Assembly (NCBI GenBank): GCA_964595645.1
Contig: CAZQQT010000006.1
Location: 1 to 64,000, forward strand
Direction: 5' to 3'
DNA length: 64,000 bases
Source: an uncultured Thermococci archaeon
Lineage (GTDB): Archaea > Methanobacteriota_B > Thermococci > Methanofastidiosales > B48-G16
The position numbers and the translations under genes were made by a program. Position 1 is the first letter of the stretch; each line of letters opens with the position of its first letter. This document shows, piece by piece, positions 30,769 through 33,628 of this stretch. The notes beneath the pieces are model-generated. The model saw only the letters and a list, made by a program, of their open reading frames with translations. It searched no databases and was not told the DNA's origin.

Positions 30769-30843
30769 GGGGCCGTAGGGTAGCTTGGTCCATCCTTCGG
30801 GCTTTGGGAGTCCGGAACTCCGATTCAAATTCGGGCGGCCCCA
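30769..30843 (+). tRNA. tRNA-Pro(TGG)
   Basis: GGGGCCG/CGGCCCC acceptor stem, anticodon arm CGGGC-TTTGGGA-GTCCG, TTCAAAT T-loop; upstream TTTATAA box. Confidence 0.92.
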
Positions 30844-30919
30844 CTCATGATTTTTCACTAACGATGAAAAAAAGATGTATCAAATCAACGATTTGATCCA
30901 GTTTCGGGCGGCCCCACTC
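30830..30919 (+). repeat. 17-bp duplication of the tRNA-Pro 3' end (30830-30846 and 30903-30919) enclosing a 56-nt double-hairpin element
   Basis: TTCGGGCGGCCCCACTC occurs twice; the spacer closely matches the element behind tRNA-Ile2. Confidence 0.9.
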
Positions 30920-30992
30920 CTCTTTCTATTCACGTTGAGATTCAAAAGAGCATATGCGCAATATATAAATGCACATCACTGCTACCATTGAC

Positions 30993-31526
30993 ATGGTCAC
31001 CTTCATCGTGAAGAGCAACACGGCACAAGCGACCTTTCTCTTAAAAGATCTCCCCGGTAGTGGAAGAAGAATTGACATTCTCTGTCGATGCGTCAACTCT
31101 GCCTTCTGTCTTTCCCATGACATCCGACGGGATGTGACACTGTATCTCTGTTTTGCCGGAAAAACACTCACATTCGTGGGAAGGGAACTGAAGCATCTCA
31201 CACCCGATGAGCGGGGGATTGCCGTTATCATCCAAAAAGCGCTTGAAGGCAACCCTACTCCCGGCGTCTATGTGAGTAATGCCACCTTTGAGGAGACGCT
31301 GCGAGAACAAAAAGGTGAAATAGTATTCCTCCACGAAGAAGGGGAAGATATCTCGCACATATCGTTGCACGAGAACATGTGCTTTGTCCTCGCGGGCCAT
31401 AAAGGATTTAATAAAACAGATCAGAAACTCTTAGAACGCATGGGGAAAAAGGTGAGTATCTCACCGAAGATACTCCACACCGATCACTGCATTATCGTCG
31501 TCCACAACTTCCTAGACCGAGTGTGA
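30993..31526 (+). CDS. trmY: tRNA (pseudouridine54-N1)-methyltransferase
   Basis: DLPGSGRRIDILCRC, FCLSHDIRRD, PDER, SPKILHTDHCIIVVHNFLDR. Confidence 0.88.
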   Translation: MVTFIVKSNTAQATFLLKDLPGSGRRIDILCRCVNSAFCLSHDIRRDVTLYLCFAGKTLTFVGRELKHLTPDERGIAVIIQKALEGNPTPGVYVSNATFEETLREQKGEIVFLHEEGEDISHISLHENMCFVLAGHKGFNKTDQKLLERMGKKVSISPKILHTDHCIIVVHNFLDRV

Positions 31527-32996
31527 CCGTACCTCCACGGCCATGCCCCGCTCCATCTTTTTCATCATATAGCCGGGAACAACAGCCGTTCCCACACCCA
31601 CTGCCTTCCCCTCTCTGATCACTACAACGTCCTCTCCAGGATTGAGTGATGTGTCACACTCGAGCACACCGACACAGAAGACATCTCCTTTCAACTCGAA
31701 ATCGATTGTCACGTAGTGTGTGTCATGTGTATAGAGCAGTTCCGATCCTTTCACGGTGAGTCTGAGTCCTCTTTTTCTGTCGTACCGCGCGAGTAGATTG
31801 TTGTCAGTGTATATTTCCAGCCTCCGCCTCCTCTTCTTCACCGTAATGTTTTCGGGGAAAATATCGACGCCGTAGAGAAACTCGGAGACCTTTCGAAGCT
31901 TCTGATTTCGGCATTCTGGAATTTCGTCTTGATACTCTCTGATCGTCGCCGTGAGATCATCGGTGATCTCGGCGTCCGGGTACACATCCTGGTATTCCTC
32001 AGGAACATGTGCGATGATCCGTGGGTCGTCCGCTTTTTTAAGGAGTGAGTCCAGAAGGGTTTTCGCTTCGTCTGTTTCTTCCTGGGTCCAGTCACCGGTC
32101 ACCACAATGTCGTAGTCCGCGTAGTCCTCGAGTTCCCGTGGTACGACACCTAGGGGAGACGTGAGAATGAGCTGCGTGATGCCGTAATACTGATTTCTGT
32201 TCTTTACTTCTCGTTTTATCGCGCTGATAAATTTTCGATGGGATTGTGAGAGAGAGTATGGCTTTTTAGCAGAACACGGGAGCAACACAATGAAATTGGA
32301 GTGTGGAGCGTAGTTCTCCTTAACCTTTTTCCTCCAGTGCACAGTCTCGGGCCTGTAGAGCGAGTCCTCCGAGATGTAGATATCTTTCTGATCTTTTATC
32401 TTTACATTCTTTACAAGGTGATCCGAGAACTCTCTGTACGCAATTCTCAGGAGTCGTTTTGTTTTTATCGAGCTGTTCGCCTCTTTCTCCACATACTGCT
32501 TTGTTGTATTCTCCAGAAACTCCTTCAACGCTTTTTTATGCTCTGTTGAGTACGGAAACACATCGAACCCGAGAAACGCATAGACCGGGATCTCCTCGGG
32601 GTTGCAGTCGATGAAAAAAAGTGTATGTGGATACTTCTCTCTGAGCGTGAAAAACACATCCAAAAACCGCCGTTCTTCCGCACCATCGAAAAGAAAGAGT
32701 TCTCCCTCACATTTTTTATACCGCTCATTCAGCTCGCGAGACTGGACCACACGGATGGGCACCACTTCTCGCGTCATCGGATGCACGAACAGCTTTCCGA
32801 TATTGTGAGGGATGGAGTAGGAAGGTCGCAGATATCCATTCTCCTTGATACCCTTAAAAAATGGTTTATTATAGGTAATATCGTCAATGATGATTTTTTC
32901 CCTCTCAACCCTCGCGAGACATGGCGTTTTTACCTCCTCACTGTTTTTCGTGAAGAGGCCGATCCTGTAGTTGTCGATCTCGAGCAGCTCGTACAT
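31512..32996 (-). CDS. arcS: Archaeosine synthase alpha subunit (TgtA2/ArcS) with PUA domain
   Basis: LLPCSAKKPYSLSQSH, TSPLGVVPRELE, YDIVVTGDW, C-terminal PUA. Confidence 0.85.
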   Translation of the reverse strand: MYELLEIDNYRIGLFTKNSEEVKTPCLARVEREKIIIDDITYNKPFFKGIKENGYLRPSYSIPHNIGKLFVHPMTREVVPIRVVQSRELNERYKKCEGELFLFDGAEERRFLDVFFTLREKYPHTLFFIDCNPEEIPVYAFLGFDVFPYSTEHKKALKEFLENTTKQYVEKEANSSIKTKRLLRIAYREFSDHLVKNVKIKDQKDIYISEDSLYRPETVHWRKKVKENYAPHSNFIVLLPCSAKKPYSLSQSHRKFISAIKREVKNRNQYYGITQLILTSPLGVVPRELEDYADYDIVVTGDWTQEETDEAKTLLDSLLKKADDPRIIAHVPEEYQDVYPDAEITDDLTATIREYQDEIPECRNQKLRKVSEFLYGVDIFPENITVKKRRRRLEIYTDNNLLARYDRKRGLRLTVKGSELLYTHDTHYVTIDFELKGDVFCVGVLECDTSLNPGEDVVVIREGKAVGVGTAVVPGYMMKKMERGMAVEVRSHSV

Positions 32997-33073
32997 ATAT
33001 GGTATAAGGTATACGGTACTTTAATTCTTTTTCTCCACCGCTCTACAAGAGATGTCTTTCAAAGAAAAAATCA

Positions 33074-33172
33074 TGAGTGGGCCCGAACTGGATCAAATCT
33101 TTGATTTGGTACATCCTTTTTCATCGCAGATGAAAAATTCTTAGGGTCCACGAGCAATGTGAGTGGGCCCGA
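33074..33172 (-). repeat. 13-bp duplication of the tRNA-Ile2 3' end (33160-33172 and 33074-33086) enclosing a 73-nt segment that contains the double-hairpin element
   Basis: TCGGGCCCACTCA (minus strand) occurs twice; the enclosed core matches the element behind tRNA-Pro. Confidence 0.9.
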
Positions 33173-33237
33173 CGGGATTTGAACCCACGACCGCCCGGTT
33201 ATGAGCCGGGTGCTCTACCAAACTAAGCTACGGGCCC
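33164..33237 (-). tRNA. tRNA with CAT anticodon, most likely tRNA-Ile2 (agmatidine-modified)
   Basis: GGGCCCGTAGCTTAG...CCCGGCTCATAACCGGG...TTCAAAT...CGGGCCCA; GGGCCC acceptor typical of archaeal Ile tRNAs rather than Met. Confidence 0.88.
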
Positions 33238-33628
33238 TCAAAAGACCGACGTGGTCGAAGACCACGTCCAGCTGTAACGCCGTCAGCCGGATTGTGTACT
33301 CCGAATTTAACGCCGACCAGACAACGCTTCTATGAAACTACTACTCATTCACGGAGATCCTTATTTAAATTTTTCGGGAGGTTCGTGTGAGTTTCTTCTA
33401 AAATCCTATACTGTTCTCAGCAATATAGTATATGAGTTTACTACAGATCGACATAGGTTCATAATTTGCAGCCCTCTAAATCCAATGAGTTACTGAAGAG
33501 GTTGTCTTAGGTAACGTCTGTTTTGGTAAGTTATACGATACAAAATTTGTTAAGCATAACCTTTTAAACTTGGAGACTATAGGGTGTAGTAGAACAAAAT
33601 ACATAGGTAACAAAAAAAAATCGAGAAT

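Follow-up and report, generated by a model that had tools for sequence, protein, structure and literature searches.

Gene-less foldback units bounded by copies of the tRNA 3′ end in a small euryarchaeal family

The tails of tRNA genes are classic landing sites for viruses and genomic islands. Here we describe units about 100 times smaller and without genes, which lie behind tRNA genes in a small methanogen-related euryarchaeal family, beginning with two copies in a 64,000-nucleotide (nt) stretch from an uncultured Thermococci archaeon (assembly GCA_964595645.1, contig CAZQQT010000006.1, positions 1 to 64,000; ‘the window’ below). One copy follows tRNA-Pro(TGG); the other follows a tRNA with anticodon CAT, probably tRNA-Ile2 to judge from its acceptor stem and D arm, which match those of tRNA-Ile(GAT). 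Both belong to a lineage-specific family of miniature gene-less cassettes, of which they are short, partly decayed derivatives of the kind termed type C below, and the arms of such cassettes are copied in both orientations from whichever tRNA precedes them. We put at about 0.5 the probability that these units are selfish, non-autonomous cassettes that use the tRNA-tail attachment site and spread and shrink by recombination. A literature search turned up no paper on foldback cassettes at tRNA tails, and the family is apparently undescribed.

The family was sampled through six genomes, G000 to G005: the window's own genome (G000; 14 contigs, designated C2, C3 and so on below, 1.97 Mb, 43 tRNAs), its sister species G001 (a metagenome-assembled genome, MAG, 94% complete), and four further relatives, of which G002 and G004 belong to genus g2. 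Two genomes from sister families (31 and 30 tRNAs) served as controls. tRNAs were called with ARAGORN, and own-tail repeats in G000 were sought as exact matches to at least 10 nt of a tRNA 3′ end within 400 nt. The scan of other species used a pattern of the units' second hairpin and one genome per species (~185,000 species). X1 and X2 denote the first and second sense copies of a tRNA tail, and X′ its antisense copy. The two elements and their tRNAs occupy the following positions in the window:

tRNA-Pro(TGG): 30769-30844, forward strand; intact cloverleaf, CCA not encoded (ARAGORN; orthologues in G001-G005)
X1-Pro: 30830-30846, forward strand; 17 nt, TTCGGGCGGCCCCACTC, comprising the last T-loop base, T-stem 3′ strand, acceptor 3′ strand, discriminator and CTC
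Pro-element interior: 30847-30902, forward strand; 56 nt, without an antisense arm
Pro hairpin 1: 30851-30871, forward strand; TTTTTCA pairs with TGAAAAA
Pro GATG hairpin: 30879-30897, forward strand; ATCAAATC pairs with GATTTGAT, followed by CCAGT
X2-Pro: 30903-30919, forward strand; exact 17-nt second tail copy (sequence reading and exact-repeat search)
tRNA(CAT): 33163-33237, reverse strand; called by ARAGORN, Rfam tRNA model 70.4 bits, compared with relatives
X1-Ile2: 33160-33172, reverse strand; 13 nt, TCGGGCCCACTCA
Ile2-element interior: 33087-33159, reverse strand; 73 nt
Ile2 linker: 33152-33159, reverse strand; CATTGCTC
Ile2 antisense arm X′: 33144-33151, reverse strand; GTGGACCC, a near-complement of the duplicated GGGCCCAC
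Ile2 hairpin 1: 33117-33137, reverse strand; TTTTTCATC pairs with GATGAAAAA
Ile2 GGATG hairpin: 33092-33110, reverse strand; CAAATC pairs with GATTTG, followed by ATCCAGT
X2-Ile2: 33074-33086, reverse strand; exact 13-nt second tail copy

Common to both interiors are hairpin 1 (ATTTTTCA...TGAAAAA) and a second hairpin, GATGTAyCAAATCnnnGATTTGATCCAGT. The core shared by the Pro and Ile2 elements is 92% identical over 36 nt (blastn-short, E = 3e-7 against the 1.97-Mb genome), and the same search of all 14 contigs returned no third copy, both copies lying at tRNAs. Among the 43 tRNAs of G000, none apart from these two has an own-tail repeat (2/43). In the control sister-family genomes, own-tail units occur at 0/31 and 0/30 tRNAs, so the repeats are not due to chance. 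A first-pass annotation, made from the letters of the window alone, had reported one element behind two different tRNAs, each time followed by a copy of that tRNA's own 3′ end; this is borne out by exact repeats of 17 and 13 nt, with the second Pro copy starting at 30903 rather than at 30904, as had been given. Also correct was its remark that CCCACTCATGATTTTT recurs after the first Pro tail copy and after the second Ile2 tail copy. Of the double-hairpin structure that it described, both hairpins are present, but the window copies fold weakly in isolation (Pro, z = +0.28; Ile2, z = -1.44 for the sense and -2.68 for the antisense strand). Its statement that the element has no terminal inverted repeats was wrong: typical units, and the Ile2 element as well, carry an antisense tail copy that pairs with the downstream sense copy, and the Ile2 element is predicted to adopt a three-way fold closed by X′:X2.

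The kinship of the two copies with units in related genomes is seen in two comparisons. The Pro interior is the top G000 match of an nhmmer search with a profile of B units built from relatives, and alignment of both elements with type-C units of G001 (alignment A1) shows each to be a type-C unit minus a 51-nt, two-hairpin middle block. The Ile2 copy keeps the linker and X′; in the Pro copy X′ has been lost, and its fold is no stronger than that of shuffled sequence.

The tRNA-Pro(TGG) gene itself has some peculiarities. Called by ARAGORN, it is not listed by the Rfam tRNA model at E <= 1 in the window, and among the 40 Rfam hits in G001 its counterpart is absent too. The anticodon stem of the window gene includes a G.U pair, and its T-stem a U.G pair. 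Orthologues in genus g2 encode CCA, whereas the G000 and G001 genes do not.

Alignment of units from different tRNAs (MAFFT) revealed a common plan: X1, an 11-nt linker (TCAYTTCRTTC), X′, GGATG, a variable hairpin, CATTT, X2 and then the native trailer of the tRNA. X2 repeats the tail exactly, and X′ matches, imperfectly, the reverse complement of that tRNA's final 12-15 nt. X begins where the T-stem 3′ strand begins, takes in the acceptor 3′ strand and the discriminator and extends 1-5 nt further, and in the aligned units its left edge never falls inside the T-loop. The inner hairpin varies freely in stem sequence, with a loop that is often CTYTTCGAY. Two further modules occupy the same sites: module A (CACCTCCCGAGTTTCC...GGAAACATCGTTAGGGATG-hairpin-CATTTT), seen behind Pro, Lys, Gly, Val, Ile and Ile2 tRNAs, is placed within the linker at seven tRNAs, and type C (GAATTTTTCATC...GATGAAA, two further hairpins, then the GGATG hairpin) is found at five, with all three long type-C copies in G001 (3/3) situated at tRNAs.

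In nearly all units X′ is predicted to lie opposite X2, enclosing the inner hairpin or hairpins, and 11/15 units fold at z <= -2 relative to dinucleotide shuffles. The antisense fold is the stronger one in 11 units and the sense fold in 3; the wobble pairs described below favour the sense strand, so that the evidence on strand is divided. Local alignment proved too blunt a measure of the specificity of X′ and was replaced by ranking of duplex energies, in which a unit's own tail was among the top 3 of ~30 tRNA tails of the same genome in 11/18 units. The pairing was analysed further in an alignment of 13 units from 11 loci (A2), with the structure taken from a single member: paired cells make up 70.5% (61% in shuffled alignments) and the covariation score is 0.30 (0.165 when shuffled), values reached by 0/500 shuffles in either case, in tests that are inflated by the relatedness of the sequences. 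The correct register outscores every slid register. X′:X foldback pairing thus covaries with tRNA identity. Two positions opposite C70 and C71 are nearly always unpaired, and wobble pairs between GG and UU, which are specific to the sense strand, are conserved.

Related units are present in all six family genomes and on two metagenome contigs, always behind tRNA genes and at no fewer than 15 tRNA species, with own-tail repeats of 9-20 nt in the relatives. They are most numerous in G001, where exact own-tail repeats at 11/34 tRNAs, together with three units that lack X2 (Val-CAC, Val-TAC and Ala-CGC), give a total of ~14/34: tRNA-Ile2 is followed by three tandem units plus one older unit, Arg-CCT and Val-GAC carry arrays, and own-tail repeats also follow Lys-TTT, Gly-TCC, Gly-GCC, Gly-CCC, Ile-GAT, Arg-TCG, Leu-CAG and Pro-TGG. 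In G002, 3/31 tRNAs (Arg-TCT, Val-TAC and Ile-GAT) have units and two partial units were found in addition; G003 and G005 have units at Ile2, and the two metagenome contigs have them behind Asn-Ile2 and behind Val-TAC. Outside these, the scan of ~185,000 species genomes with the core pattern gave a family match only in G004, with three hits, all directly 3′ of tRNAs (Val-TAC, Ile-GAT and a degenerate Gly), the remainder being ~20 chance bacterial hits.

Sites without a unit were found at tRNA-Pro in G002, G004 and G005 and at tRNA-Ile2 in G002. In genus g2 the native trailer (TAACCCTTTTCTTTTT...) stands directly after the tRNA in empty sites and after X2 in filled ones; the extra material therefore consists of exactly one insert and one tail copy. 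Much of what the first-pass annotation had proposed or named for checking is thereby confirmed: a family of very small elements without genes at tRNA 3′ ends, a duplication that matches its own tRNA at each copy (in the window and in relatives alike), tandem units, empty sites in relatives, and further copies at other tRNAs, which are many in the relatives and none in G000. The core was never found away from tRNAs, which disposes of the generic terminator that had been named as a possible refutation.

Some tRNA trailers resemble remnants of such units. Those of tRNA-Val(TAC) and tRNA-Val(GAC) in G000 (C2:220-300 and C2:33773-33800) contain the linker-like and X′-like sequences TGTCTTACTTATGATCCCCTAATAGG and TTACCTCGTTCAT with no second tail copy, and are probably decayed cassettes. 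In G004, a Gly-like tRNA that precedes a cassette (L032:2730-2800) has a damaged T-arm (CGAGCGACAATCCCGA) and is not called by ARAGORN; it may be a pseudogene created or tolerated at the cassette site. Genus g2 also has a palindromic trailer of its own (AACCCTTTTCTTTTTT..AAAAAGAAAAGGG) behind many tRNAs (G004 and G002; L183-L193, L205, L211).

Units appear to have been exchanged among tRNA loci. An identical 28-nt hairpin is found at both Gly(GCC) and Val(GAC) in G001, and identical or near-identical modules stand behind different tRNAs of one genome. A Gly unit has its linker and X′ conserved between genera and a different inner hairpin, and the Ile2 unit of G005 combines the arm of one unit with the hairpin of the other from the two-unit array of a related metagenome contig. 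Modules common to different tRNAs, tandem arrays and chimeric units together imply copying of units from one locus to another, with recombination reshuffling, amplifying and removing them.

Integrase-bearing elements that use the same part of the tRNA exist in G000, which encodes two paralogous tyrosine integrases of 406 and 410 amino acids (53% identical), both with an N-terminal SAM-like domain, a catalytic domain and a zinc ribbon. The former lies within a 14-kb island at tRNA-Glu(TTC) (C3:52076-66119, L234) bounded by the 13-nt sequence CCCGGCCGGAGCA; the latter (C6:86862-88094) lies directly after tRNA-Asn (C6:88155-88229, reverse strand), a displaced fragment of which is found in the window:

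Displaced tRNA-Asn 3′ fragment, TCCGGCTGACGGC: 33278-33290, reverse strand; far attachment repeat of a ~55-kb insertion from tRNA-Asn at C6:88155-88229

The repeats that flank the islands at tRNA-Glu and tRNA-Asn are 13-14 nt long and correspond to the same tRNA segment as X of the cassettes. According to a review of archaeal recombinases, the tRNA 3′ end constitutes an asymmetric class of target, the 14-nt att site of IntSNJ2 lies at the tRNA tail without a stem-loop, and related archaeal integrases switch between tRNAs (PMC8371274). Given these points and the position of the island repeats, recombination in trans at X is, we infer, the most economical mechanism. The first-pass annotation had favoured target duplication over an attP; this is not established, since integrase elements in G000 are flanked by the same 13-14-nt segment.

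The reading that we favour builds on what the sequences show: family membership, restriction to tRNA tails, own-tRNA repeats, foldback with covariation, arrays, chimeras and empty sites. Entry of a cassette would be a site-specific recombination event inside X, carried out in trans by a tyrosine recombinase for which the asymmetric tRNA tail is the site, and the X′:X foldback may serve as a folded attachment site, much as attC does in integrons. After entry, recombination between X repeats would amplify, delete and shuffle units; one way in which X′ could arise is fold-back template switching, with the hairpin as its site. The parts that we infer are the enzyme, where X′ comes from and whether events ran towards gain or towards loss.

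Several points weigh against this reading. A comparison with candidate cognate integrases showed the two island integrases of G000 to use the same tRNA sublocation, with neither linked to cassettes; no recombinase was found beside arrays, xerA loci carry no units, and units have no link to xerA or integrase loci. The richest genome, G001, shows only a XerA-like recombinase (in a 94%-complete assembly). Cassettes share no sequence with the ends of the kilobase-size G000 elements, and a gene-bearing or long version was absent from four scans of viral, genome and metagenome collections. A double-stranded circle of 60-120 bp is too small for a plausible intermediate, and an element-borne attP alone cannot explain arms that match ~15 tRNAs while the cores stay near-identical. 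Empty sites are silent on direction and no proof of gain, since such a site is restored when the stretch between X1 and X2 is deleted. Finally, the conserved sense-strand G.U pairs hint at a constraint at the RNA level.

The units resemble known systems in part. Like integrative elements at tRNAs and the integrase-less, att-bounded CIMEs (cis-mobilizable elements), which are kilobases long (PMC5704250, PMC6323972), they have direct repeats of the tRNA 3′ end as their borders, leave the tRNA intact, occur in tandem at the site and lack a recombinase of their own, and they share the tRNA segment with the G000 integrase elements; they differ in being 50-120 nt rather than kilobases long, in being cargo-free, and in having a tRNA-specific antisense foldback arm with one core behind ~15 tRNAs. 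With integron cassettes they have in common the order core site, content, inverse core site, variable hairpin and core site, and arrays beside a fixed entry site. The units are also folded imperfect palindromes whose structure is kept while their sequence varies, the property by which attC sites are defined, and, as in attC, some stem positions are always unpaired. Such an order (X, content, X′, variable hairpin, X) suggests that the site is single-stranded and folded. In contrast to integrons, the ‘core site’ of the units is 12-15 nt long and tRNA-specific, the cassettes are gene-less and no IntI-type gene is nearby. Miniature inverted-repeat transposable elements (MITEs) and repetitive extragenic palindromes with their associated transposases (REP/RAYT) are similarly small, gene-less, hairpin-forming, multi-copy and lineage-specific; the units differ from them in having no fixed terminal inverted repeats and no Y1/RAYT gene, in occurring strictly at tRNA tails, and in having arms copied from the target rather than carried by the element. 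We regard it as a tentative possibility, well short of an even chance, that the units form a distinct class of mobile DNA, that is, foldback micro-cassettes whose targets are tRNA tails and which re-create the tail they have entered in antisense as well as in sense. If they do, insertion would be target-templated, through either a folded single-stranded att site or template switching, a mode not known from any described element family.

The units might instead serve the host as a structured 3′-trailer RNA, co-transcribed with the tRNA, in which a minihelix-like hairpin is closed by the copy of the acceptor/T-stem strand; roles in processing, termination or as a decoy would be conceivable, analogous to those of the E. 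coli RtT or 3′ETS (external transcribed spacer) RNAs. In the E. coli tyrT-tyrV trailer repeats (RtT, RF00391), structured units behind a tRNA each end in a copy of the tRNA 3′ end. The present units likewise sit directly 3′ of a tRNA and end in a copy of its tail, but RtT belongs to one locus and its model does not match, while the units are shorter, occur at many tRNA loci and have an antisense arm. Strong folds whose pairing covaries with the tRNA, the conserved sense-strand G.U pairs between GG and UU, a helix boundary that coincides with that of the tRNA minihelix domain, near-constant unpaired positions opposite C70 and C71 that look designed, and the retention of X′ even in units without X2 would all suit an RNA function. 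Hard to reconcile with it are the erratic presence of the units (2/43 tRNAs in G000 against ~14/34 in the sister species, with orthologous tRNAs of close relatives lacking them), the frequency of tandem amplification, chimeras and decayed copies (among them the Pro copy without X′, at z = +0.28), antisense folds that are often stabler than the sense folds (11 versus 3 units), and the failure of any Rfam family, RtT included, to match. On balance we think a host-functional trailer RNA rather unlikely.

An origin as scars, in which kilobase-size elements bounded by attL and attR lost their interior and left the two ends behind, would account for direct repeats of the tRNA tail, the classic attL/attR signature. 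Published tRNA-gene fragments border elements of 9-23 kb (PMC9897764), and such elements exist in G000 at tRNA-Glu (14 kb) and tRNA-Asn (~55 kb). The same 50-120-nt architecture would, however, have to arise by independent deletions at 15 or more tRNAs in six genomes; units and ends of the resident large elements are dissimilar, the long version did not appear in the viral, genome and metagenome scans, and random decay is not expected to yield arrays of whole units or a tRNA-specific antisense arm. This makes scars improbable. Insertion by a transposase or casposase, with the tail repeat as a true target-site duplication and X′ added later by fold-back template switching, seems slightly more improbable still. 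Casposases make target-site duplications of 14-15 bp, with which the 12-17-nt, tRNA-specific repeats overlap, and hairpins are hot spots for template-switch palindrome extension. Yet the sole Cas1 belongs to a cas1-cas2-cas4-cas3-cas8b locus, a Y1 transposase is present in none of the six genomes and a reverse transcriptase only in G004, repeat length ranges from 9 to 20 nt, no conserved terminal inverted repeats belong to the elements, and the left limit of X follows a structural boundary of the tRNA rather than a fixed stagger. Least credible, and highly improbable in our estimate, is a tRNA intron of non-canonical type, or an alternative 3′ half, with splicing at a bulge-helix-bulge. Archaeal introns do move between tRNAs, and owing to the duplicated exon tail the removal of one 73- or 86-nt period would restore the same tRNA, but the tRNAs are complete cloverleaves unspliced, the insert lies 3′ of the discriminator, and no bulge-helix-bulge was seen in the predicted folds.

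A number of more specific identities were rejected. The casposon reading had been over-weighted in the first-pass annotation: the single Cas1 of G000 lies inside an ordinary CRISPR-Cas locus, terminal inverted repeats are absent, and the repeats vary from 9 to 20 nt, which rules out a mini-casposon as well. The search for a casposase, integrase or reverse transcriptase that it had called for did uncover the two G000 integrases; neither integrase is linked to cassettes, no casposase was found, and a reverse transcriptase was found in G004 only. A palindrome-associated element of the IS200/IS605 type (PATE) or REP-RAYT was discarded on the absence of PF01797 (Y1) from the six family genomes, with positive hits in control genomes; a retroelement on the confinement of reverse transcriptase to G004 and on an X′ without the complement of CCA; and a MITE on inverted arms that are copies of each tRNA's tail rather than element-borne, with repeats of variable length (9-20 nt). 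Some units are crossed by an open frame, but their substitutions lack codon periodicity, contrary to a coding remnant of a split integrase. Rfam searches at E <= 1 returned only tRNA and 5S rRNA hits and none to RtT (RF00391), no IntI-type recombinase with an attI stands beside the arrays as an integron cassette would call for, and a terminator of general use is excluded by the confinement of the core to tRNAs, a loose GGATG...CATTT expression giving only noise elsewhere. The only match to a viral contig (L068) falls in an unrelated phage gene and is probably due to chance.

If mobile, the cassettes would be a minimal substrate for recombination at tRNA tails, raising the question of how an insertion gains target-matched arms; if functional RNAs, they would be an archaeal counterpart of the poorly understood tRNA trailer RNAs of the RtT type. 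In practical terms, they create annotations of tRNA fragments and break assemblies at tRNA genes, as seen from the many MAG contigs, in G004 in particular, that end at or inside tRNA-tail cassettes.

Between the two tRNAs of the window lie genes for a TrmY-family methyltransferase and an ArcS-like protein (DUF5591 and PUA domains). The order tRNA-Pro > trmY > < arcS < tRNA(CAT) < tRNA-Asn is kept in relatives whether elements are present or absent, so the inverted pair around trmY-arcS to which the first-pass annotation had drawn attention reflects conserved gene order, the layout being shared by element-free relatives. The distance from tRNA-Asn to tRNA-Ile2, which follows it downstream, is 1-40 nt in relatives, and their spacer matches that of G000, where ~55 kb (window 33291-64000 and on to C6:88154) separates tRNA-Asn from its displaced fragment. 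In all probability, then, the right half of the window is one integrated island or several combined.

Further observations concern islands and trailers elsewhere in G000. The tRNA-Glu(TTC) island also holds Eco57I/MmeI-like restriction-modification genes. Repeats of 12 nt at a distance from tRNA-Cys and tRNA-Pro(CGG) were considered as attachment sites and set aside, as they lie in coding sequence and look like chance matches. The CRISPR-Cas locus (C5:14000-33900, L233) comprises cas2, cas1, cas4, cas3, a TM1802-type cas8b, a RAMP protein gene and a short array with a 66-bp period. A shared trailer, (T)ATTTACCCT...CCAGAAA...TATGTT...CTTAATAAAGCTTT, is found at C3:2906, C3:52152, C7:5240 and C6:82188, behind tRNA-Leu(CAA), tRNA-Glu(TTC), tRNA-Thr(CGT) and an orphan tRNA-Leu 3′ fragment, and looks like the common left end of one island family at different tRNAs. 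A second shared trailer, AAATCCCTTCRATTCTCCAA..GGGCTTGAAAA, stands behind tRNA-Leu(TAG), tRNA-Leu(CAG) and, in part, tRNA-Cys (C3:126329, C5:64167 and C6:92619).

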